NCBI GenBank assembly: GCA_964567665.1 | Contig: CAZMNN010000005.1 | Span: 13,752-77,751, forward strand | DNA length: 64,000 nucleotides | Source: an uncultured Lentisphaeraceae bacterium | Lineage (GTDB): Bacteria > Verrucomicrobiota > Kiritimatiellia > RFP12 > UBA1067 | Reading direction: 5' to 3' | The notes under the pieces: model-generated | Told to the model about the DNA's origin: nothing | Seen by the model: the letters and a program-made list of their open reading frames with translations, nothing else | Database searches by the model: none | Translations under genes and position numbers: made by a program | In this document: positions 1,596-61,553 of the stretch, piece after piece | Position numbering within the stretch: position 1 is the stretch's first letter | Layout: each line of letters opens with the position of its first letter

Positions 1596-2486
1596 ATGAA
1601 CATGAAAACAGCCATGGGTGTATGCTGTGGAACTTTGATGATTTCCGCCATCGTCGTTTTGGCGGGATGCCATGTGCGGCCGCCGTCAGACGCCCTCGAT
1701 GAACCTGCCGCCGTTGAAGACGCGAACCCCACCCCGAAGAGGGTGACGAGACGGATATGTCTCCTTGAGAACGGCGACATCGGGAAGTACTGGTACACAT
1801 GGCTAAAGTCCGCACGAAAGCGCAACTGTGACACGAATGGCGTATTCACCGCTGAGGGGCGTACTCTCATGGTCAACGGGACGGACATGGGATGCGTCAC
1901 CACGCGTGATGCGTACAGTGACTACAGGCTTACACTTGAATTTCGCTATGTCGACAACGACAGGCAGTTGAACAAGAGGGCAGCCCGCGACGGCGGAATC
2001 CTGTTTCATTCAAACGGACCTGACGGGGCGTACGGAAACGGTATCTGGATGTACTCCTTCGAGTATAACATCATACAGGGGGCTGCCGGCGATCTGATTG
2101 TTGTTGGCAATGCGGCGAACCGCGCAGATGCACCGCACTATTCCTGCAAAGGGAACGTCAACCGGGGAACAATGGGGACGCCGGCTCAGCATTGGGATCC
2201 CAGCGGACCCGAAATCGTGCTGAAGGACAGTGGAAGGGTGCGTCGCTGCGACATTGATCACGAATGGAAGAATCTCATGTCGCAGCCGCTTTCACCGAAC
2301 GAAAACCCGATTGGCGAATGGAACCGAGCAGAGGTTGTGTGCCGTGGTGACAGCGCCGAGTTTTTCTTCAACGGTAAAAAGGTCGCTGAGTTCCGTGAAC
2401 TTAAGCCGTCTTCGGGACGCATCCAGCTTCAGAGCGAAGGATTCGGAATAGAGTACCGGAATATCGTGCTTGAGCCGGTGGAATGA
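1596..2486 (+). CDS. lipoprotein with DUF1080 (3-keto-disaccharide hydrolase-like, concanavalin-type) domain
   Basis: Signal peptide with lipobox LAGC; C-terminal IQLQSEGFGIEYRNIVLEP typical of DUF1080. Confidence 0.7.
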   Translation: MNMKTAMGVCCGTLMISAIVVLAGCHVRPPSDALDEPAAVEDANPTPKRVTRRICLLENGDIGKYWYTWLKSARKRNCDTNGVFTAEGRTLMVNGTDMGCVTTRDAYSDYRLTLEFRYVDNDRQLNKRAARDGGILFHSNGPDGAYGNGIWMYSFEYNIIQGAAGDLIVVGNAANRADAPHYSCKGNVNRGTMGTPAQHWDPSGPEIVLKDSGRVRRCDIDHEWKNLMSQPLSPNENPIGEWNRAEVVCRGDSAEFFFNGKKVAEFRELKPSSGRIQLQSEGFGIEYRNIVLEPVE

Positions 2487-2508
2487 CGTGAACAGGCGAA
2501 CGAAGTCC

Positions 2509-4572
2509 ATGAGGTTCATTTGCGGAGCGCGAGGCAGCCGGCTTTCCGTTGCGCAGGCGCAGGGTTGCATTGCCTTTCTTGAGGCTGCCGTCGACGGATT
2601 CCGGGCGAAGCTGCGGACGTTCAAGACGCCCGGCGACAGAGATCTTTCAACCCCGATAGAGAAAAGTGCACCGGATTTCTTCACCCGCGACCTTGACGAG
2701 GCTGTCCGGTCGGGTGCGGTGGATTTTGCTGTGCATTCCGCGAAAGATCTTCCCGACGCCATTGTCGATGACCTGGACTGGTTCTGGCTCCCGAACCGTG
2801 AAGATCCGCGTGACTGCTGGGTTGCAAGGCTTGACGGCCCGCTTGCCGATCTCGACGCAGCAAGACGGAAGGGGGCGGGAGCAAAGATCGGCGTGTCGAG
2901 CGAAAGGCGCCGCTCGTTTGCGGAATTGCGATATCCCATGGCGAATCTGTTGCCGATAAGGGGCGCAATCGATTCTCGGCTCAATCAGTTGGCGGACGGC
3001 AGATTTGATGCGGTGCTGATGGCTGTCGCCGGACTTAAACGCCTCTATCCAGGTTGGGACGGCGGGGACAGGCTTGATGTCGATGGTTGCGCCTCGTTTG
3101 CAGTGAAAACGATCGGTGTGGAGGCACTTCCGCCGCCGGAGGGGCAGGGGTGTCTCGCGGTTGTGTTCAAGAAAGGGGATGCGCGGCTTGCCGCCGTGCG
3201 CCGGAACTTTGTCAAGGCCGTTCGCTTCACGAGCGCAGGCGTCGGTGACGCCGGAACGATAACGGTGCGCGGTGCACGTGATCTGGAAGAGGCGGACGTA
3301 GTGCTTGCGGACGCTCTTTCGGGATTCGGCGGACAGCGGCGCGACGGTGCGAAATGGGTGAATGTTGGCAAGCGTTGCGGCGCGCATTCCATGGCTCAGG
3401 GAGAGATTACGCGGCTAATCTGCGATGAAGCGAGGAAGGGGAGGCGCGTCGTTCGCCTCAAAGGCGGCGACGCCGGACTGTTCGGACGGCTTGCCGAGGA
3501 GACGGCGGCGCTTGATGCACTCGGCATTCCGTATGTTGTGCGTCCGGGAGTAAGTGCGCTTGTCGCAGCCACGTCTCCGAACGGCATTCTCCTCACGAAG
3601 CGGGGCGAGGCCGGCGGGTTTGAGGTTTCCACTCCGAGATCGGCGGGCAAAAAGACGCCTAAGGTGTTTTTCATGGCAACGCGGGTTGCCGGCGAGACGT
3701 TGAAGCGGTTTCCGGCAGACGAACCGTACGCAATGGTGTGGGATGCCTGCGGGCCTCACGAACGGATTCAGACCGGAATGTGCGGGAGTCCGGAACTGCG
3801 GGCGGACGATGCTCCGGGACTGCTCGTCGTCGGCTATGCGGGCGCACCGGTTGCATCAAGGCGCATTCTTCTAACGTGTTCAGAAGCAGTGATGCCGTGC
3901 GCCGAATGTCTGTTTGAAGATAGAGGCTTCCGCGTGGTCAAATGGCCGATGATAGCGCTCAGGTTCCGCGAAAGCTGCCGTGACGCCATTTCAGATGTCG
4001 CAGGCCGGTATGATGCGATTGTGCTTACCAGCCCCAGCGCCGCCCGGATGTTCTTCTCGGAATGCAGTTGCGACCGGCGGCATCTGCCGCGCTTCTGGAC
4101 TTGCGGATCCGGCACGGACGCTGAACTTCGGCGAAACGGCGTATCGAGCGATGTTATGCCAGATGGCGATTTCTCAGCAAAAGGCCTCGTGGAGAAATTG
4201 AAGCGCAATGCCGGAATCGTGAAAGGCAGCCGCATCCTGCGTCTGCGCAGCGCGAAGGCAGGCGGCCATGTCGCCAACGCCATCAGGCGCATGGGCGGAA
4301 AGGTGGATGACGTTGTGCTTTACGACAATGTGCCTGTCGCGCACGACGAGGCCGCCATGCCGTCCTGCGACGCTGTGTTCTTTGCAAGCTCCAGCGCGGT
4401 GGAGGCGTTTGTCTCGCGGTATGGCGCGAAATCACTTTCGCGCATGGACATATACGTGATAGGCGAGCCTACGCGCCGTGCGCTTCCTTGCCGCATGAGG
4501 GGGCGGGCGACGCCTTTTTCGCTGGCGGCGTTTGAGTCCGCAGCCGGCGACACAACCAGGGAATACAGATGA
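2509..4572 (+). CDS. three-module fusion: HemC-like (porphobilinogen deaminase domains 1-2) / uroporphyrinogen-III C-methyltransferase (CobA/SUMT) / uroporphyrinogen-III synthase (HemD)
   Basis: N-term MRFICGARGSRLSVAQA and AVHSAKDLP, VGTSSxRR-like GVSSERRRSF, AVAGLKRL match HemC. Middle TSAGVGDAGTITVRGARDLEEADVV...VRLKGGDAGLFGR...VRPGVSAL matches SUMT. C-term IVLTSPSAARMF...VIGEPT matches HemD. ORF track starts at TTG 2470; ATG 2509 (or GTG 2488) is more likely. Confidence 0.75.
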   Translation: MRFICGARGSRLSVAQAQGCIAFLEAAVDGFRAKLRTFKTPGDRDLSTPIEKSAPDFFTRDLDEAVRSGAVDFAVHSAKDLPDAIVDDLDWFWLPNREDPRDCWVARLDGPLADLDAARRKGAGAKIGVSSERRRSFAELRYPMANLLPIRGAIDSRLNQLADGRFDAVLMAVAGLKRLYPGWDGGDRLDVDGCASFAVKTIGVEALPPPEGQGCLAVVFKKGDARLAAVRRNFVKAVRFTSAGVGDAGTITVRGARDLEEADVVLADALSGFGGQRRDGAKWVNVGKRCGAHSMAQGEITRLICDEARKGRRVVRLKGGDAGLFGRLAEETAALDALGIPYVVRPGVSALVAATSPNGILLTKRGEAGGFEVSTPRSAGKKTPKVFFMATRVAGETLKRFPADEPYAMVWDACGPHERIQTGMCGSPELRADDAPGLLVVGYAGAPVASRRILLTCSEAVMPCAECLFEDRGFRVVKWPMIALRFRESCRDAISDVAGRYDAIVLTSPSAARMFFSECSCDRRHLPRFWTCGSGTDAELRRNGVSSDVMPDGDFSAKGLVEKLKRNAGIVKGSRILRLRSAKAGGHVANAIRRMGGKVDDVVLYDNVPVAHDEAAMPSCDAVFFASSSAVEAFVSRYGAKSLSRMDIYVIGEPTRRALPCRMRGRATPFSLAAFESAAGDTTREYR

Positions 4573-9485: not shown

Positions 9486-9494
9486 TGCTATAAT
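9486..9494 (+). promoter_or_regulatory. extended -10 box TGCTATAAT upstream of fabG
   Basis: Exact TGnTATAAT; GTG 9506 would be near-leaderless, ATG 9536 has AAAGGA SD. Confidence 0.5.
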
Positions 9495-16769: not shown

Positions 16770-17438
16770 ATGCTTGACGCCTTGGCCGCACACCTTGACC
16801 AGATTGCCGCGCTTGCGCCGGTATGGGGGTATGTCTTCATTTTCGTATTCATGGCAGTTGAGAGTTCGTTCATTCCGTTTCCGAGCGAGATAGTGATGAT
16901 CCCTGCGGGATTCCTTGCGGCAAGGGGCGAACTGTCGTTCCATGCGCCGATGCCAGATCTTGCCGTTTCAATCCTGGTTGGGCTGCTTGGTTCGATCGTC
17001 GGGGCGTACGTCAACTACTTTCTTGCGGCGCATCTCGGAAAGCCATTTCTGCAGCGGTACGGCAAGTGGTTCTTTCTGTCGCCTGCGGCGCTCGACCGGG
17101 CATCGGAGGTGTTCAACCGCTACGGGAACATGGCGACGTTCGTATGCCGTCTGCTTCCCGCTATCCGGCAGCTGATATCTATTCCGGCCGGAATCGCGAA
17201 GATGCCGTTCGGCCCGTTCACATTCTACACGGCGCTTGGCGCGGGGCTGTGGACTGCGGTGCTTGCCGGAACGGGATATTGGCTGGGACGCACGGCCGGA
17301 GACATCTCGTACGGCGAACTCATCCACCGTGGCAAGGCGTTCGTGGACGGAAACCTGGTGTGGGTGGTGCTTGGCGCAGTTGCGCTTGTCGTTATCCATG
17401 TCGTCGTGTCGAAGCTTGTGATGAAGCGTCGGGGATGA
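16770..17438 (+). CDS. DedA/SNARE-associated family membrane protein
   Basis: ESSFIPFPSEIVMIPAG motif; ATG 16770 preceded by AAAGGAG; the ORF track start 16746 overlaps the upstream gene. Confidence 0.7.
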   Translation: MLDALAAHLDQIAALAPVWGYVFIFVFMAVESSFIPFPSEIVMIPAGFLAARGELSFHAPMPDLAVSILVGLLGSIVGAYVNYFLAAHLGKPFLQRYGKWFFLSPAALDRASEVFNRYGNMATFVCRLLPAIRQLISIPAGIAKMPFGPFTFYTALGAGLWTAVLAGTGYWLGRTAGDISYGELIHRGKAFVDGNLVWVVLGAVALVVIHVVVSKLVMKRRG

Positions 17439-17525
17439 CCGGCGCATATCTGATTCGTCGATTCCTTTGCCGTATCGCTTTTGCGGATTCGTGAGATGTT
17501 GCCGTTTGCCTGCGATATGCGTTTG

Positions 17526-17534
17526 TGGTAGTAT
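17526..17534 (+). promoter_or_regulatory. extended -10-like box TGGTAGTAT 12 nt before bioW-bioF ATG (near-leaderless)
   Basis: TG at -15/-14 plus TAGTAT; no SD before ATG 17547. Confidence 0.35.
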
Positions 17535-17546
17535 GCGCACTCCGTT

Positions 17547-19448
17547 ATGGCAACATCGGATCATCGGAGTCTCTTTTCGGTGAAGATGCGAGCGTCGCGC
17601 AACGGCGAGCACATCTCCGGAGCGGAGCGCATCGTCAGCGAATCGTCAATTCCGCAGCTTGTGGGCGTCATGGCGGAACGGGCACTACGCCACGCAAAGG
17701 GGAAGCCTGATTTCATAAACGTGAAGGTGGAGTCCGCCCCTGAGCCGCTTCTGCTGAAGGCCCTTCCCGTATCAACGCGCACTGTGAAGTCGCCTGAGGA
17801 GGGATGGAGCGCGGTGCGCGAGATCCTTGCTTCGGATGGCGTCACGCGCATCGACGAAATCGTCTCGCTGTTCAGGCAGACGTACGGAATGCGCGGAGCG
17901 ATGCTGCTTGACGCCGACACATTGGAGCGGCTTGAACCTGATCCGGCGAGAGGCGTAAGGGCGACGTTCATGGATGACGCCGCCAGCGCTTCGCACGGAT
18001 TCTCCAACGAGAAGAACCACTATGCGGAGGCGATTGTGCTTGCCACGAAGGTCGCGAACGCGCCGGGCATAGTCGGAGAGATATGCATGTCGGACGATCC
18101 GGACTACGTGACGGGGTATGTCGCGTCACGGCGCATCGGTTATGTGCGCATATCGTGCATGAAGCGTCCGGGAGACCCGTCGGGCGGAAGGATATTTCTC
18201 TATCGTGGACTGCGTTCGGACGTCGGAAACGCAATAGACTTCATACAGCGCAGATGCGTTCTCGTGACCGAGGTTCCGCCGCGTCCGTCGGAGATATGCA
18301 ATGCCGCGTCAAGCCGCCATTCCGAAAATCCGACGGCAGATGACATGAGGCGCGAACTGGACGACATCCGCACGGCGGGGCTATGGCGCGAAGTCCGGGA
18401 GCCCCCGTCTGGATTGAAGGCCTTTGCCGACAACGATTATCTTGGTCTCGCCGGAGATCCTCGCCTCAAGGAGGCTGCAAAGAACGCCACGGATGCGTTC
18501 GGTGCGGGAGCGGGCGCATCCCGTCTCGTGACCGGGACGCTGCCGCCGCATCTTGAGCTGGAGCGACACCTTGCGCGGTTCAAGGGAACGGAGGATGCCA
18601 TAACCTGGGCTACGGGCTACATGGCCAATCTCGGCACGATATCCGCCATTGCCGGAAAGGGCGACGCCGTGTTCAGCGACGAGCTGAACCACGCGAGCAT
18701 TGTGGACGGTTGCCGCCTTTCCAAGGCAGATGTCTTTGTGTACCGGCACAACGACATGGCTGACCTCGCCGTGAAGATTGCCGGTGCAGGGCGGCGCAGA
18801 CGGATGTTGGCGGTGTCCGATGCGGTGTTTTCAATGGATGGCGATGTGATGGATCTGCCTCGCTTCATCGATGTGTGCCGCACCGGCGGCGTAATGTCGA
18901 TGGTGGACGAAGCCCATTCCACTGGAGTTATGGGAGCGACGGGACGCGGCCTCTGCGAACATTTCGGATGCAGTCATCCCGACATTCTCATGGGGACGCT
19001 TTCAAAAGCCGCAGGAAGTGAAGGCGGATACGTGTGCGCGTCGAAGATGATTTGCGACTATCTGCGGAACAGGTCGCGTCCGTTCATCTTCTCCACGGCG
19101 TACAATCCAGGTTCGGCGGCTGCGGCGGATGCCGCGCTTTCGCTTATTGAACGCCATCCCGAACTCGCCGCAACGGTGCGGCGGAAGGCGCAGGATTTCG
19201 CGGCGATGCTCCGCGAACGCGGCATTTCCGCCAAGACGGAGAGTGCAATCGTCCCTGTCGTAATCGGTGATGAGCGCAGAGCGGTGGAGGTGTCCGGCGA
19301 ACTCCGCAGACGCGGATTTCTTGTCCCGGCGATACGCTATCCGACGGTCGCCAAAGGTGCGGCGCGTCTTCGCGTGTCGGTTTCGGCGGCGTCCCGCCAT
19401 GAAGACCTGTGTGCGCTCGCAGATGCGATTGCCGGCTGCATGAGGTAG
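17547..19448 (+). CDS. fusion of 6-carboxyhexanoate-CoA ligase (BioW) and 8-amino-7-oxononanoate synthase (BioF)
   Basis: N-terminal half aligns to B. subtilis BioW (FSVKMRASRNGEHISGAER, GKPDF, SPEEG, SDDPDYVTGYVASRRIGYVRI). C-terminal half is a class-II aminotransferase with BioF features (DNDYLGL, SMDGDVMDL, TLSKAAG PLP lysine region). Confidence 0.8.
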   Translation: MATSDHRSLFSVKMRASRNGEHISGAERIVSESSIPQLVGVMAERALRHAKGKPDFINVKVESAPEPLLLKALPVSTRTVKSPEEGWSAVREILASDGVTRIDEIVSLFRQTYGMRGAMLLDADTLERLEPDPARGVRATFMDDAASASHGFSNEKNHYAEAIVLATKVANAPGIVGEICMSDDPDYVTGYVASRRIGYVRISCMKRPGDPSGGRIFLYRGLRSDVGNAIDFIQRRCVLVTEVPPRPSEICNAASSRHSENPTADDMRRELDDIRTAGLWREVREPPSGLKAFADNDYLGLAGDPRLKEAAKNATDAFGAGAGASRLVTGTLPPHLELERHLARFKGTEDAITWATGYMANLGTISAIAGKGDAVFSDELNHASIVDGCRLSKADVFVYRHNDMADLAVKIAGAGRRRRMLAVSDAVFSMDGDVMDLPRFIDVCRTGGVMSMVDEAHSTGVMGATGRGLCEHFGCSHPDILMGTLSKAAGSEGGYVCASKMICDYLRNRSRPFIFSTAYNPGSAAAADAALSLIERHPELAATVRRKAQDFAAMLRERGISAKTESAIVPVVIGDERRAVEVSGELRRRGFLVPAIRYPTVAKGAARLRVSVSAASRHEDLCALADAIAGCMR

Positions 19449-19488
19449 ATGCGTCCGCAGATTGTTGCACCGGAACGGAAAAAGGAAA

Positions 19489-19509
19489 GGGCGCGGAATT
19501 TCCGCGCCC
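19489..19509. terminator. bidirectional rho-independent terminator hairpin GGGCGCGGAA-T-TTCCGCGCCC
   Basis: Perfect 10-bp GC-rich stem between convergent bioWF (+, ends 19448) and hup (-, ends 19538); T/A-rich flanks on both strands. Confidence 0.6.
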
Positions 19510-19537
19510 TCTCTTGTGTTCCAGAATGACTGGATCG

Positions 19538-19843
19538 TTAGCCGAGGATTGCGTCCTTGGCCGCCTTGCAAAGGCGGAATTTCGCCTTCGTGCGGGCGGG
19601 GATCTTGATCGACTCGCCGGTGAGCGGATTGCGGCCCATGCGAGCTTTGGACTTCGCCTTCATGATCTTGCCAAGACCCGGGAGCATGAGACCCTTCGGG
19701 AGCTTTGCGCCATCGTACGCGATAGCGAGGAACTTCTCGTACACGGCAACAGCCTGCTTCTTGGTGATGCCCGCCGCTTCTGCGAGGGCGACCATGATTT
19801 CACTCTTCGTAGCCGGAACTTTCTTTGCCTTTGCCTTTGCCAT
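19538..19843 (-). CDS. hup: HU-family DNA-binding protein with N-terminal Lys/Ala-rich extension
   Basis: GRNPLTGESIKIPARTKAKFR arm motif; N-terminal MAKAKAKKVPATK. Confidence 0.8.
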   Translation of the reverse strand: MAKAKAKKVPATKSEIMVALAEAAGITKKQAVAVYEKFLAIAYDGAKLPKGLMLPGLGKIMKAKSKARMGRNPLTGESIKIPARTKAKFRLCKAAKDAILG

Positions 19844-19920
19844 TTTTTTGTTTCCTTATAAGGTGTTCTTGGGATTAGTCCCCTAAACGCCGCGTAAGAT
19901 ACATCATTCGGACTTCGTTT

Positions 19921-19958
19921 GCAAGTAAAAAATTGGGGAAAACCGATTTTTTACTTGC
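19921..19958 (-). terminator. perfect 13-bp-stem hairpin GCAAGTAAAAAAT-N12-ATTTTTTACTTGC downstream of mutS
   Basis: Lies 56 nt past the mutS stop on the minus strand and upstream of the hup promoter region; U-tract is within the stem. Confidence 0.4.
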
Positions 19959-22428: not shown

Positions 22429-22494
22429 ATATTGCGTATTATACCACACCCCTCGGTGTACCTCAAATAAGATGTGCGGCGGCGATGCGCCTAA

Positions 22495-22523
22495 CTGACG
22501 CAGTTTGCGAATTGTGGTATAAT
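22495..22523 (+). promoter_or_regulatory. promoter CTGACG-N17-TATAAT with TG extension (TGGTATAAT)
   Basis: -10 at 22518-22523, about 40 nt before ATG 22565, which has AAAGGAG SD. Confidence 0.45.
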
Positions 22524-22564
22524 TGACAACAGTTTTCTTTCGTCACAACCAAAGGAGTATACAT

Positions 22565-24040
22565 ATGAAAAACATCGCCCTTGTGGCGGCTGGTTCGATT
22601 CTCGCCGGGTGCATCTCTGCGCCGGAGGTGAAGTGCGGATACCACTGCAAGCCTGCGGCGGAAGTTGCCGCCAACGCCGATGCCGACGGCTTTGTGCCGC
22701 TCTTCAACGGCAAAGATCTCACCGGATGGATCGGTGCGACCGGAATGTATGGTGTAGACCCCAAGGAGCCTGGCATACTGCAGTGCCTCCCCGACAGACA
22801 GGCGAAAGGCCAGCCCGGAAATCTCTGCACGGAGAAGCAGTACAGGAACTTCGTTCTCCGCTTTGAGTTCTGTATGCCGGAGAACGGCAATAACGGCCTC
22901 GGCATCCGTATGCCAAACCCCAACGTCGACTCTGCCTACGGCGGAATGTGCGAGCTGCAGCTTCTTGACGACGGCGGAAGCCAGTACTACGACGCCAATG
23001 CCGGACAGGACAAGCTTCACGGCTACCAGTACACGGGAAGCGTGTACGGCATCGTTCCGAGCCGCCGCGACAATGTCGGCAAGCAGATCTGGGGCAAGGA
23101 CAAGAACTTCACGGGAGGCGGATCCTACGTGAAGAAGCCTGGGATGTGGAACTTCGAGGAGGTTCGCGTAATCGGCAGCGAGATCGAGGTGTATCTCAAC
23201 GGCGTGCTCATCACGAAGGCGGATGTGTCGAAGTTCAAGGGCGACGGCACCGACACGCCGGACGGCAGGAAGCATCCCGGCCTCCACAACAAGATCGGAC
23301 ACATCGGCTGGCTCGGCCACGGGCACAACGTCAAGTGGCGCAACATCCGCATCAAGGAACTTCCTGAGGATGCGAAGATGGATGCGGTCTGCCCCTGCGC
23401 AGTCAAGAAATGCCCTGAAGGCTTCACAACGCTCTTCGACGGCAAGCCTGAGCAGCTCACCGCGAACTGGAAGGGCGTGACCACGCGTGAAGGGTTCGAC
23501 AACCCGATCAAGCGCCAGGCGGCCACGGACGGCAAGCGCGCCGATATGCAGAAGTTCGCCGATGAGCATATGCTCAAGCACTGGACGGTCGATCGCGGCG
23601 TCCTCCGCTTCGATGGATTGAAGGGCGGCTATTCGCTCGCCACAAAGAAGGACTACAAGGATTTCGAGATGTTTGTCGATTGGCGCATCGTCTCCGTGCA
23701 GGGCGACTCCGGGCTGTATCTGCGCGGTTCGCCGCAGGTGCAGATATGGGATGCCCACAACCAGTGGCACATCGGCTCCGGCGGCCTGTACAACAACCAG
23801 AAGAATCCGTCCAAGGCCCTCAAGATCGCGGACAACCTCGTCGGCACATGGAACACGTTCCGCATCAAGATGGTCGGCGAGAAGGTGTGGGTGTGGCTCA
23901 ACGGCGAACTCGTGGTCGACAACACCACGCTTGAGAACTACTGGGACCGCAGCCGGCCGATATTTCCGGTCGAGCAGATCGAGCTTCAGTGCCACGGCGA
24001 CCCCGTTGAATTCCGCAACATCTTCATAAAGGAACTTTGA
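22565..24040 (+). CDS. lipoprotein with two tandem DUF1080 (3-keto-disaccharide hydrolase-like) domains
   Basis: Signal peptide plus lipobox LAGC; each half ends in the DUF1080 signature (NVKWRNIRIKEL and VEFRNIFIKEL). Confidence 0.7.
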   Translation: MKNIALVAAGSILAGCISAPEVKCGYHCKPAAEVAANADADGFVPLFNGKDLTGWIGATGMYGVDPKEPGILQCLPDRQAKGQPGNLCTEKQYRNFVLRFEFCMPENGNNGLGIRMPNPNVDSAYGGMCELQLLDDGGSQYYDANAGQDKLHGYQYTGSVYGIVPSRRDNVGKQIWGKDKNFTGGGSYVKKPGMWNFEEVRVIGSEIEVYLNGVLITKADVSKFKGDGTDTPDGRKHPGLHNKIGHIGWLGHGHNVKWRNIRIKELPEDAKMDAVCPCAVKKCPEGFTTLFDGKPEQLTANWKGVTTREGFDNPIKRQAATDGKRADMQKFADEHMLKHWTVDRGVLRFDGLKGGYSLATKKDYKDFEMFVDWRIVSVQGDSGLYLRGSPQVQIWDAHNQWHIGSGGLYNNQKNPSKALKIADNLVGTWNTFRIKMVGEKVWVWLNGELVVDNTTLENYWDRSRPIFPVEQIELQCHGDPVEFRNIFIKEL

Positions 24041-31071: not shown

Positions 31072-31080
31072 TGGTATACT
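31072..31080 (+). promoter_or_regulatory. extended -10 box TGGTATACT upstream of TAT-signal oxidoreductase gene
   Basis: About 32 nt before ATG 31112. Confidence 0.4.
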
Positions 31081-31111: not shown

Positions 31112-32428
31112 ATGCAAAACAGAAGAGGATTCTTGAGGAACGCTGCGGCGTTTGGCGCATTCGCCATCGTGCCTGCCCGCGTCCTGCGCGGAGCGACAGC
31201 TCCGTCCAACCAGCTCACACGCGCTCTGATCGGCTTCGGTTCGATTGCGCATTCCGCAAACCATCTCCCGTTCAAGGGGTCGCGCCTCATCGGTCTCTGC
31301 GATCCGTACGAGGCTCGCGTACAGGCAGGTCTGAAGGCCGCGCAGGACAACGGCTTCGGAAAGATTAAGGGCTACGGGAACTTCCTTGAGCTGCTTGCAG
31401 ACAAGGATGTCGATATCGTCCACATCTGCACGCCGCCGCACTGGCATGGCTGCATGAGCGTGATGGCGGCGAACGCCGGAAAGGACATCTGGTGCGAAAA
31501 GCCGATGACGCGCACCGTGGGTGAAGGAAAGCGCGTGATGGAGGTCGTAAAGGCCAAGAAGCGCATGTTCCGGCTCAACACGTGGTTCCGCTTCCAGAGC
31601 ACATTCTACGGATTCGGCACGACCGTCAAGCCTATTCGTCAGGTTGTCGAAAACGGACTTCTCGGCGAAGGTCCGATCAAGTGCACGTTCGGCGCGGGAC
31701 AGGGCTTCAGCTGGAAGTTCTTCTGGTCTGGCCGCGTCAACTCCGCGCCGGAGCCGATACCCGCCGGGTTCGATTGGGACATGTGGCTCGGTCCGGCGCC
31801 GTGGAAGCCGTACACCGCGCACCGCGCCGGCACATCCTTCCGCGGCTACTGGGACTACGATTCGGGCGGGCTTGGCGACATGGCTCAGCACTATCTCGAT
31901 CCGCTCCAGTACCTTCTCTGCAAGGACGAGACGAGTCCGGTGAAGGTCGATTACGTTGGCCCGAAGCAGCATCCGGAATCCGTCGGTCGCTTCGACCGCA
32001 TCACGCTCACGTATGCGGACGGCACGGAGGTCGTGCTGGACGGCGACGAATCGCTCAAGGGCGAACCGCTCCTTCGCGGCTCTAACGGACTGTGCGTCTA
32101 CCCGAAGGCGAAGGACGGCAAGACACTCCGCCTTGTTGACGCCAGCGGCAAGGAGCTGAACGCGGAGAAGATCCTCTCCGACCTGCCCGAGCCGGCGCCT
32201 CAGCAGACCGACTTCATCGACAGCTGCACGAACCGCAAGACGTTTGCGCTCAACGAGTCGAACGGCTTCCGCTCCTGCACGATGTTCAACCTCGGAATCG
32301 CGGCTGAGCGCCTTGGACGCGGATTCAGGTTCGACCCCGAAACGCTCCACGCCGTGGACGATCCGGCGGCAGACCGTTTCCTCTACCAGTCCATGCGCGA
32401 ACCGTGGCGCAAGGAGATGTGGGGCTGA
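31112..32428 (+). CDS. Gfo/Idh/MocA-family oxidoreductase with twin-arginine (TAT) signal
   Basis: MQNRRGFLRNAAAFGAFA TAT motif; Rossmann N-terminus and DIVHICTPPHWH region typical of the family. Confidence 0.7.
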   Translation: MQNRRGFLRNAAAFGAFAIVPARVLRGATAPSNQLTRALIGFGSIAHSANHLPFKGSRLIGLCDPYEARVQAGLKAAQDNGFGKIKGYGNFLELLADKDVDIVHICTPPHWHGCMSVMAANAGKDIWCEKPMTRTVGEGKRVMEVVKAKKRMFRLNTWFRFQSTFYGFGTTVKPIRQVVENGLLGEGPIKCTFGAGQGFSWKFFWSGRVNSAPEPIPAGFDWDMWLGPAPWKPYTAHRAGTSFRGYWDYDSGGLGDMAQHYLDPLQYLLCKDETSPVKVDYVGPKQHPESVGRFDRITLTYADGTEVVLDGDESLKGEPLLRGSNGLCVYPKAKDGKTLRLVDASGKELNAEKILSDLPEPAPQQTDFIDSCTNRKTFALNESNGFRSCTMFNLGIAAERLGRGFRFDPETLHAVDDPAADRFLYQSMREPWRKEMWG

Positions 32429-32459
32429 TTCCAGATACATGACTACCGGAGAAGCAGAA

Positions 32460-33980
32460 ATGAAGAAACTTTTTTGTGCGATGATGATTGCCGGCGCGAT
32501 GGCCGCCGGTGCGGCGGATCCCAACAAGTACGCCGACTACGGAGCGGGCATGGCGCCGGACAAGACCTACCCGATGGCGGTGGAATGGCACGCCGCCAAC
32601 CGCGCCGCGATCGAGACGGAGACCTCGGACGACAAGCTTGCCGGGTTCGTGGCGGATTCGGCAAGCGCGAAGGCTCTGCTCGCCAAGGTCAAGCCGGCGT
32701 ACGACACCGACCCGATGGTGGCTGCGCAGGTCGCCGCAGCGAGCCAGTACGTGATGCGCACCGAACCGTCGTGGTGGGAGTTCTGGGCATGGTTCTCGGA
32801 CTCCGATCGTGACGTCTGGACTGCTGCGCTGCTCGAAGCGGCGGCTGACGCGAAGGACGCATACTGCAAGATGCTGTTCCTCGACCAGCTGCGCTGGTGC
32901 GGGCGGCAGGATCAGGCGGCGAACGTCCTTGAGATCGGAAAGGCGTCAAACGACAGGGGCGTGATGCAGTTCGCCGACATGGTGGCGGCGGAACTCGATC
33001 CTGAAGCCGGATGCGCGAAGGCCTGCTGCAAGGTCAATTGCCCGTACGGCAGCTGGGCGCTGACGCTTCCGTTCGATGCGATGAACGCCGGACACCTCAT
33101 CCTGTCGAAGGGCGCGGACGGCAAGCCCACGGCCACGCTGCTGTGGCGCTGGGGAAGTCCGTTCACCGTCGCCGGTGATGACCTCAAGGTCTGCAAGGAC
33201 GGCTTCACCCTCACGTTCGGCAACCACAAGCCGAAGGATCTGCCGCAGGACAAGAGCGCATGGCGCAGCGACCGCGTGATCGCGAAGATCTGCGGGGACT
33301 GGGCGGCCTGCACCCTCCAGAAGGTGGACGGCAACGGCAAGGTCGTCGGCGCGGTGCAGACGTTCTCCGCAAAGCGCAATCCGCCGATCGGTCCGAAGCC
33401 GGACCTCGCGAAGGCCGTGCGCGGCACTCCGGTGAACATCCTGGGCGGGACGATCGACGACTTTGAGTTAATGGAGAAGTCACTGACGAACGGCTGGACG
33501 CTGAAGGACGGAGTGCTCTCCAACCGCATTATGCGCGACACCAACGGCAAGTCGCTCCACAAGAACGGAAACCTCCGCACGAAGCGCACCGATTTCTTTG
33601 ACTTCAACCTCAAGTACGAAGTGCGCGTCCTTCCGGGCTGCAACTCCGGCGTGTATCTGCGCGGCATCTACGAGATTCAGGTGCTCGACAGCTACGGCAA
33701 GCCGGTCGACTGCCACAACATGGCGGCGTACTACGGCCGCGTTACGCCCCGCGTTGCGGCAGAGAAGAAGGCCGGCGAATGGCAGACGGTTGACGTCACG
33801 CTCTACAAGCGGCATCTCACGGTTGTCCTGAACGGCGTGAACATCATCGACAACGTGCCGGTCGTCGGAATCACCGGCGGCGCAATGACGGCGAACGAAT
33901 TCACGCCGGGACCGCTCTACATCCAGGGCGACCACTCTGACGCCGACTTCCGCAACATGGTGCTCACACCGTTGAAGTGA
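32460..33980 (+). CDS. secreted protein with C-terminal DUF1080 domain
   Basis: ATG 32460 with signal peptide MKKLFCAMMIAGAMAAGAA; C-terminal roughly 170 aa match the DUF1080 pattern (YLRGIYEIQVLDS...ADFRNMVLTP); the ORF track start 32244 overlaps the upstream gene. Confidence 0.6.
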   Translation: MKKLFCAMMIAGAMAAGAADPNKYADYGAGMAPDKTYPMAVEWHAANRAAIETETSDDKLAGFVADSASAKALLAKVKPAYDTDPMVAAQVAAASQYVMRTEPSWWEFWAWFSDSDRDVWTAALLEAAADAKDAYCKMLFLDQLRWCGRQDQAANVLEIGKASNDRGVMQFADMVAAELDPEAGCAKACCKVNCPYGSWALTLPFDAMNAGHLILSKGADGKPTATLLWRWGSPFTVAGDDLKVCKDGFTLTFGNHKPKDLPQDKSAWRSDRVIAKICGDWAACTLQKVDGNGKVVGAVQTFSAKRNPPIGPKPDLAKAVRGTPVNILGGTIDDFELMEKSLTNGWTLKDGVLSNRIMRDTNGKSLHKNGNLRTKRTDFFDFNLKYEVRVLPGCNSGVYLRGIYEIQVLDSYGKPVDCHNMAAYYGRVTPRVAAEKKAGEWQTVDVTLYKRHLTVVLNGVNIIDNVPVVGITGGAMTANEFTPGPLYIQGDHSDADFRNMVLTPLK

Positions 33981-45778: not shown

Positions 45779-45899
45779 TGCCGCAGATTATCCCATAATC
45801 CTCCGCCGAACGCAACCGCCGCGAAAAACTTCCGTCCGTCGGCAGATTTGCCGCAAGAAAGCCGGACTGCGAAATGAAAGAAAGTTGATGATTTTGCTT

Positions 45900-49110: not shown

Positions 49111-49119
49111 TGGTATAAT
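49111..49119 (+). promoter_or_regulatory. extended -10 box TGGTATAAT upstream of gmd
   Basis: About 47 nt before ATG 49166. Confidence 0.45.
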
Positions 49120-52976: not shown

Positions 52977-52985
52977 TGGTATAAT
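52977..52985 (+). promoter_or_regulatory. extended -10 box TGGTATAAT upstream of etfB-like gene
   Basis: Exact match about 40 nt before ATG 53026. Confidence 0.45.
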
Positions 52986-61544: not shown

Positions 61545-61553
61545 TGATATAAT
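61545..61553 (+). promoter_or_regulatory. extended -10 box TGATATAAT upstream of ilvE
   Basis: Exact match about 28 nt before ATG 61581. Confidence 0.45.

Follow-up and report, generated by a model that had tools for sequence, protein, structure and literature searches.

The 64,000-nucleotide stretch of contig CAZMNN010000005.1 analysed here (hereafter, the window), from an uncultured Lentisphaeraceae bacterium of the Kiritimatiellia lineage, carries the gene bioWF, a fusion of a pimeloyl-CoA synthetase (BioW) to an 8-amino-7-oxononanoate (AON) synthase (AONS, BioF). The gene is a single uninterrupted open reading frame (ORF) at 17547..19448 on the plus strand, which begins with ATG and specifies 633 residues followed by a stop codon. 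The N-terminal half of the product matches the Pfam BioW model PF03744 over its whole length (residues 10–240; profile positions 1–239 of 239; E = 1e-75; 254.9 bits against a cutoff of 25) and scores above the cutoff of the NCBIfam equivalog for BioW/6-carboxyhexanoate-CoA ligase, NF002360 (242.7 bits; cutoff 226); on a further BioW membership test, TIGR01204, it scores slightly below the cutoff (186.6; cutoff 193.55). The same half aligns with the solved BioW structures of Bacillus subtilis (5FLG, 2e-43) and Aquifex aeolicus (5TV5, 1e-38). The C-terminal half matches the Pfam Aminotran_1_2 model PF00155 (residues 293–628, E = 4e-51) and solved AONS, KBL and other α-oxoamine synthase (AOS) enzymes. 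Among the AOS models the NCBIfam bioF model TIGR00858 ranks first by about 60 bits, the BioF/Kbl-related and KBL models reaching 359 and 356, respectively. A preliminary description of the locus, made from the DNA letters alone, had read the first ~250 residues as BioW and the last ~380 as AONS, and had proposed assigning them with the BioW and Aminotran_1_2 profiles; both domains were matched, and the fusion it described is borne out by the homologues considered below.

The residues of both active sites can be placed with some precision. Alignment to 5FLG and 5TV5 sets the triad for the pimelate ω-carboxylate at Tyr187, Tyr199 and Arg201, in register with Tyr199, Tyr211 and Arg213 of the B. 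subtilis enzyme (BsBioW), which hold the distal pimelate carboxylate (PMC9544090). The nucleotide motif HISGAER spans His22–Arg28, with its HISGAE portion at residues 22–27. In the BioF half, the pyridoxal 5'-phosphate (PLP) residues are His382 (in NHAS), Ser429 (FSMDGD), Asp454 and His457 (DEAH), Thr484, and the Schiff-base Lys487 (TLSKA), whose AAA codon lies at 19005–19007; His382, Ser429, Asp454 and His457 correspond to PLP contacts of the Escherichia coli enzyme (EcBioF). The lysine was mapped from EcBioF Lys236 and from Lys484 of CaBioWF, the fused enzyme of Corynebacterium amycolatum (PMC9544090). The triad, HISGAE, His382, Ser429, Asp454, His457 and Lys487 do not vary among 42 aligned fused homologues, and because these residues are conserved the BioW domain is predicted to be pimelate-specific and the AONS domain catalytically competent.

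A search of a collection of 5.8 billion proteins, with the best 120 matches considered, recovered the same architecture throughout: all 120, which share 59–98% identity with the protein and come from independent assemblies, are 590–680 residues long and contain both Pfam domains. In a sample of 80 loci from species-representative genomes, where ORFs were checked from stop to stop, BioW and BioF lie in one frame in L001–L015, L019 and L021. The closest relative among these loci, L001, is 91% identical in amino acid sequence, and its coding sequence (CDS) has the same length (1902 nt), with 88% nucleotide identity and no indels; the inter-domain linker is the most divergent segment in comparison with L001 and other relatives. 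When the BioW domain by itself was searched against 1.84 billion cluster representatives, only 503 family members emerged, and 23 of the best 150 of these (~15%) are BioW-to-BioF fusions, with examples confirmed by Pfam. The fusion is thus common, and together with two published cases this corrects the earlier impression that such fusions have been noted only sporadically. In a neighbour-joining tree of the concatenated BioW and BioF domains the gene falls in a deep, uniformly fused clade of Kiritimatiellia-type metagenome-assembled genomes (MAGs), Lentisphaeraceae/Victivallales-labelled MAGs, two Planctomycetes and one Desulfovibrio. The distribution in genomes of the Planctomycetes-Verrucomicrobia-Chlamydiae (PVC) group, which the preliminary description had singled out for study, is therefore that of a uniformly fused clade extending across PVC phyla. 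As fused forms of Lachnospiraceae are nested among split ones at 93–95% identity, and Fusobacterium forms a separate fused lineage, fusion and fission appear to have occurred repeatedly.

Several further observations were made on the family. The fused Lachnospiraceae genes of L015 and L019 (compared with L034) and L014 (compared with L047) are 93–95% identical to split bioW and bioF in sister MAGs, so that either the genes fused or split very recently or the MAGs contain sequencing errors. The in-frame single stops seen between bioW and bioF in Firmicutes were considered as candidates for read-through or recoding and rejected: the junctions are ordinary arrangements of stop, Shine-Dalgarno (SD) sequence and start, with TAA, TAG or TGA as the stop, and some split loci have the two genes in different frames, the in-frame cases arising by chance. 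Two Kiritimatiellia-type bioWF genes 76% identical to that of the window and sister to L004 (L002 and L003) lie on contigs filed under 'Clostridium sp. CAG:138' and 'Limosilactobacillus gorillae', labels that probably reflect binning contamination or mislabelling. Unusual BioW architectures occur in three cluster representatives (P0266, P0127 and P0219). One of these, of 1046 residues, joins an FMO-like monooxygenase and an α/β-hydrolase to BioW and may represent a module that generates pimelate, joined to its own ligase; the other two combine BioW with a Mur-ligase (680 residues) and with a shikimate-kinase-like domain (417 residues). All three could also be gene-calling artefacts.

The ATG at 17547 is the only possible start of bioWF, because an in-frame TAG (17529–17531) rules out an upstream start and the next in-frame methionine (M14) lies inside the invariant KMRA strand. 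The extended -10 element TGGTAGTAT ends 12 nt before this ATG, and an SD core (GGAG, GAGG, AGGA or AAGG) is absent from positions -18 to -4, as had been noted at the outset for a -10-like box ahead of an SD-less start. A possible -35 element, TTGCCT, is found at 17506–17511 with a 17-nt spacer. The core TTGTGGTA is present four times in the window against 0.36 expected (none of 100 shuffles reached four), and all four copies are on the plus strand directly upstream of gene starts, at 17547, 22523, 31112 and 52984; for TGNTANNAT the count is 18, with 7.9 expected. Three other genes (1596, 9506 and, on the minus strand, 45778) have -10 boxes with at least five of six consensus matches 7–11 nt from the start, where 0.31 would be expected. 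Furthermore, the 29-nt block 17519–17547, which includes the -10 box, is identical in L001. A standard σ70 scan of 17300–19950, which requires 9 of 12 matches, detected no promoter, so the assignment rests on these genome-specific motif statistics. They make a short-leader or leaderless bioWF mRNA plausible, and from the sequence its transcription start site is predicted about 5–8 nt upstream of the ATG. This arrangement looks typical of the genome and not peculiar to bioWF.

The same motif, in the form TGnTAnnAT and often as tTTGTGGTAtAAT (18 occurrences, 7.9 expected), is found elsewhere in the window at 1580–1588, 9486–9494, 22515–22523, 31072–31080, 45787–45792 (minus strand), 49111–49119, 52977–52985 and 61545–61553, among other sites besides that of bioWF at 17526–17534. 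It frequently lies only 7–12 nt from a start codon (genes 1596, 9506, 45778 on the minus strand, and 17547), and this suggests that many mRNAs of this PVC bacterium have a very short leader or none at all. In mutS, TGGTATAAT at 22438–22449 (minus strand) falls within the first codons of the longest ORF (GTG at 22449); the true start is probably the ATG nine nucleotides past the box (Met8, MSEELTPMM...), and mutS would then be near-leaderless as well. Too long a 5' end may also have been assigned to the ORFs at 22523, 49049 and 52984.

Upstream of bioWF the window encodes BamA, Skp, an ABC ATPase and a DedA/VTT protein (all by Pfam), and downstream a convergent HU-family gene (19538..19843, minus strand; PF00216) followed by mutS. 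A GC-rich terminator-like hairpin, common to the convergent bioWF and HU-family genes, was called on both strands, the minus strand having the better U-tract; it folds at -32.8 and -32.9 kcal/mol (z of -3.2 on the plus and -5.6 on the minus strand), in agreement with the bidirectional terminator of the preliminary description. The features of the locus are collected in Table 1.

Table 1. Features of the bioWF locus, in coordinates of the window
Feature	Position	Strand	Basis
bioWF CDS	17547..19448	+	ORF call; Pfam/NCBIfam domain matches; architecture common to best 120 homologues
BioW domain, residues 10–240	17574..18266	+	PF03744 full length; alignment to PDB 5FLG, 5TV5
Inter-domain linker, residues ~241–261, VPPRPSEICNAASSRHSENPT	18267..18329	+	Low AlphaFold2 pLDDT; segment divergent among relatives
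BioF (AONS) domain, residues 262–628	18330..19430	+	TIGR00858, PF00155; alignment to solved AOS/BioF chains
Extended -10 element TGGTAGTAT	17526..17534	+	Motif statistics; conserved in L001
GATTCGT direct repeat	17452–17458 and 17486–17492	+	Attributed to chance and not counted with the system
GC-rich terminator-like hairpin	19485..19513	both	Terminator scan; RNA folding

The neighbourhoods of related genes bear on the pathway served by the fusion. In other Kiritimatiellia-type contexts bioWF follows QueH-FolB (L004), IspF and a flavoprotein (L005), or a PALP-family gene that itself follows a glycosyltransferase cluster (L081). Fused relatives at 54–58% identity, which carry Lentisphaerae/Victivallales labels, stand at the end of bio operons, namely bioB-bioD-bioA-bioWF (L010) and bioD-bioA-bioWF (L007–L009), and bio operons also hold the fusions of Lachnospiraceae (bioWF-bioB-bioD-bioA) and Fusobacterium (bioWF-bioD-bioA). 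Linkage to bio genes is accordingly present in L007–L010, L014, L015, L019 and L021 and absent in the window gene and its closest relatives; we treat linkage to bioA, bioD and bioB as a supporting and not strictly defining feature of BioF. Because relatives in the fused clade sit in bio operons, orthology supports a biotin function for the window gene. A literature search on Kiritimatiellota and biotin returned nothing relevant.

Taken together, these observations make it highly likely that the gene encodes a natural bifunctional BioWF, belonging to a fused clade, which converts pimelate to pimeloyl-CoA and then to AON, and which is expressed from its own short-leader promoter up to a shared terminator. 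The architecture, the conservation of residues, the distribution and the statistics of the promoter motif are observed directly; the enzyme activities, the specificity for pimelate, the transcription start and the lack of biotin regulation are what we infer from sequence comparisons. The N-terminal domain would form pimeloyl-CoA from free pimelate, ATP and CoA, and the C-terminal PLP domain would condense pimeloyl-CoA with L-alanine, with decarboxylation, to give AON, the first committed intermediate of biotin ring assembly. The domains would be joined by a flexible linker of ~20 residues, and the fusion would ensure their 1:1 stoichiometry and proximity. The fused clade, spanning Kiritimatiellia, Lentisphaerae/Victivallales, Planctomycetes and a Desulfovibrio, is probably old and stable, and in the lineage of the window the gene has probably left the bio operon. 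There its own extended -10 promoter, which has no biotin operator that could be recognised, would give an mRNA with a very short leader and no SD sequence, ending at the hairpin terminator shared with the convergent HU gene.

Direct channelling of pimeloyl-CoA between the domains, which the preliminary description had proposed, is possible, and its only support in the literature is a modelled tunnel (PMC9544090). We built an AlphaFold2 monomer model on the 42-sequence alignment, in which the predicted local distance difference test (pLDDT) score is ~83–94 in the BioW domain and ~30 at residues 248–260 of the linker, indicating disorder. A Foldseek search with this model recovered the AOS family, but the low confidence of the BioF half made the superposition poor (TM score ~0.43, root-mean-square deviation ~17 Å), and the result was given no weight. 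The model leaves the inter-domain geometry undefined (predicted TM score 0.45) and neither supports nor refutes channelling; as a monomer it is uninformative about quaternary structure.

Several points speak against the preferred interpretation. In the AlphaFold2 model confidence is low across the BioF half. The bioF model TIGR00858 scores 418.6 bits, just below its trusted cutoff of 426.45, and the short N-terminal hairpin of the BioF half leaves the first 20 positions of the profile without a match. Between the N-terminal helix of this half (residues 262–276; GLWR) and NDYLG, the segment at 18375–18431 (residues 277–295) measures 13–14 residues in the Kiritimatiellia-type clade (L001–L006) and 19–25 in other fused or split BioFs, leaving the hairpin 6–12 residues shorter in this clade, which is consistent with a partial loss of the BioF N-terminal β-hairpin. 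The -10 hexamer, TAGTAT, agrees with the consensus at only four of six positions, and no terminator was detected in the 108-nt gap (17439–17546) between the upstream DedA gene and bioWF. Finally, Pfam searches of 50 ORFs identified no bioA, bioB, bioD, birA or bioY in the 64-kb window, phmmer with the BioB, BioD and BioA proteins of L010 found none in its six-frame ORFs, and no such bio genes occur within 8–10 kb of bioWF in the closest relatives (L001–L006, L081); the earlier remark that no other bio genes are adjacent thus holds across the window.

The alternative that fares best, which we nonetheless consider unlikely, concerns transcription: bioWF might have no promoter of its own and be co-transcribed with the BamA-Skp-ABC-DedA genes, its translation relying on SD-independent internal initiation. 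The gene has the same orientation as its upstream neighbours, and with the short gap free of terminator-like sites read-through from DedA is therefore possible; in addition, 21 of the 43 genes in the window, about half, have no SD core, so that SD-less internal initiation seems tolerated. Against this, the TTGTGGTA motif is strongly enriched and found exclusively in front of genes, the box is perfectly conserved in L001 within its 29-nt block, at least three other genes have TATAAT-like boxes 7–11 nt from their starts, and the N-terminus of mutS is arranged similarly. These features favour a dedicated promoter for bioWF.

Two alternatives concern what the protein does. It is improbable, in our estimate, that the BioWF of gut Kiritimatiellia is an autonomous, constitutive module, defined by the lack of an operon or operator, a leaderless-type promoter and the short BioF hairpin, which would mark either obligate pimelate scavenging with channelling or a non-biotin α-aminoketone product. 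Somewhat less probable still is that the enzyme is not dedicated to biotin, either converting other mono- or di-acids to a different α-aminoketone or lacking a downstream BioA/BioD/BioB pathway. The separation of the gene from bio genes in every Kiritimatiellia-type context seen (the window, L004, L005 and L081), the BioF score slightly under the equivalog cutoff, the shortened hairpin and the promiscuity of CaBioWF (PMC9544090) would all fit such a function. However, that promiscuity was traced to a phenylalanine in the pimelate triad, and both tyrosines and the arginine are invariant here; clade relatives sit in complete bio operons; and bioF is the leading AOS model by a clear margin. A role in biotin synthesis hence remains the better reading.

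It is very improbable that the leader holds a biotin-responsive operator, made of GATTCGT and TTGCCGT heptamers or of an inverted repeat, for BirA, BioQ, BioR or a new regulator. The preliminary description had drawn attention to GATTCGT as a direct repeat and to a possible BirA, BioQ or BioR operator. The repeat is indeed present twice, 34 nt apart from start to start (17452 and 17486); it forms part of two collinear heptamer pairs, GATTCGT-N8/N6-TTGCCGT (17452–17473 and 17486–17505), and a 9-nt inverted repeat (17495–17503 and 17549–17557) spans the start codon. The significance of the direct repeat does not stand, however: two repeated heptamers in the 108-nt leader are at the chance level (P = 0.36; mean of 1.4 in simulations), one heptamer of each pair is altered in L001, where the second GATTCGT copy reads GATCCGC, and the identity of the leader with that of L001 (89%) equals that of the CDS (88%). 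Regular-expression searches of 17300–17700 allowing mismatches yielded no consensus site for BirA, BioR or BioQ, and the leader contains no inverted repeat with a short spacer. A riboswitch or other structured leader was also considered and rejected, as the leader RNA shows no significant folding (z of -0.45) and no Rfam match. These results suggest that bioWF is not under biotin regulation. Last, the chance that an assembly or sequencing error merged adjacent bioW and bioF through a lost stop or a frameshift is negligible: although many Firmicutes have adjacent split genes, sometimes with one in-frame stop between them, and one base change can swap the states of the nearly identical Lachnospiraceae genes, we regard this origin as excluded because the homologues from independent assemblies, the indel-free L001 gene and the entire PVC/Desulfovibrio clade are all fused, and the linker in that clade offers neither an SD sequence nor a start codon from which bioF could be translated separately.

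Apart from the bioWF locus, the window contains a 700-residue ORF (2470..4572, plus strand) that combines three tetrapyrrole enzymes: porphobilinogen deaminase (HemC, PF01379), a CobA/SUMT-like tetrapyrrole methylase (PF00590) and uroporphyrinogen-III synthase (HemD, PF02602). CobA-HemD fusions are common, and the additional HemC looks less usual. Three paralogous proteins with the 3-keto-disaccharide hydrolase domain (PF06439) are encoded on the plus strand at 1596..2486, 22523..24040 and 32244..33980, and with the GH16, GH123 and GFO/IDH/MocA oxidoreductase genes and a rhamnose isomerase they make up a glycan-degrading repertoire.

BioWF fusions from other bacteria were described and tested earlier, and the window gene is an ordinary new example from a gut-type PVC bacterium, of limited practical value. 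It indicates that a PVC lineage would enter biotin synthesis via pimelate and BioW through a fused enzyme. Of wider interest is the extended -10 element that recurs 7–12 nt from start codons in a little-studied group. In comparison with known systems, the gene follows the same logic as stand-alone BioW (B. subtilis 5FLG/5FLL; A. aeolicus 5TV5–5TVA) with a separate pimeloyl-CoA-dependent BioF: the chemistry and active-site residues are the same, and free pimelate is taken to pimeloyl-CoA and AON in both. The stand-alone system differs in consisting of two polypeptides encoded in a bioWAFDBI operon under BirA control, whereas the window has one polypeptide encoded outside any bio operon with no recognisable operator. 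The BioWF of Desulfosporosinus orientis, like the window protein a natural fusion of BioW to BioF, reportedly complements an E. coli bioF auxotroph on pimelate with both halves functional (Manandhar and Cronan 2018, AEM 84:e02084-17, cited in PMC9544090). It belongs to a Firmicute lineage whose sampled Peptococcaceae relatives are split (L017, L020, L042), fused and split forms interconverting readily in Firmicutes, whereas the clade of the window gene is uniformly fused. A close parallel in design is CaBioWF (C. amycolatum SK46, UniProt E2MUP3; Richardson et al. 2022), with which we compared the window protein through its published description: the purified homodimer converts pimelate, ATP, CoA and L-alanine to AON (PMC9544090). 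Both proteins have about 630 residues in the order BioW, disordered linker and BioF, both have the PLP lysine (Lys484 in CaBioWF, Lys487 here), and the window protein includes the complete N-terminal β-strand before the first conserved motif that BioW activity requires (PMC9544090). They come from different phyla, an actinobacterium and a PVC bacterium, respectively, and differ at the pimelate triad. In CaBioWF Phe192 replaces one tyrosine and confers promiscuity, specificity being restored by F192Y (PMC9544090), whereas the window protein keeps Tyr187, Tyr199 and Arg201; as a BioWF of the pimelate-specific type, it could be set against the promiscuous CaBioWF in biocatalysis work.

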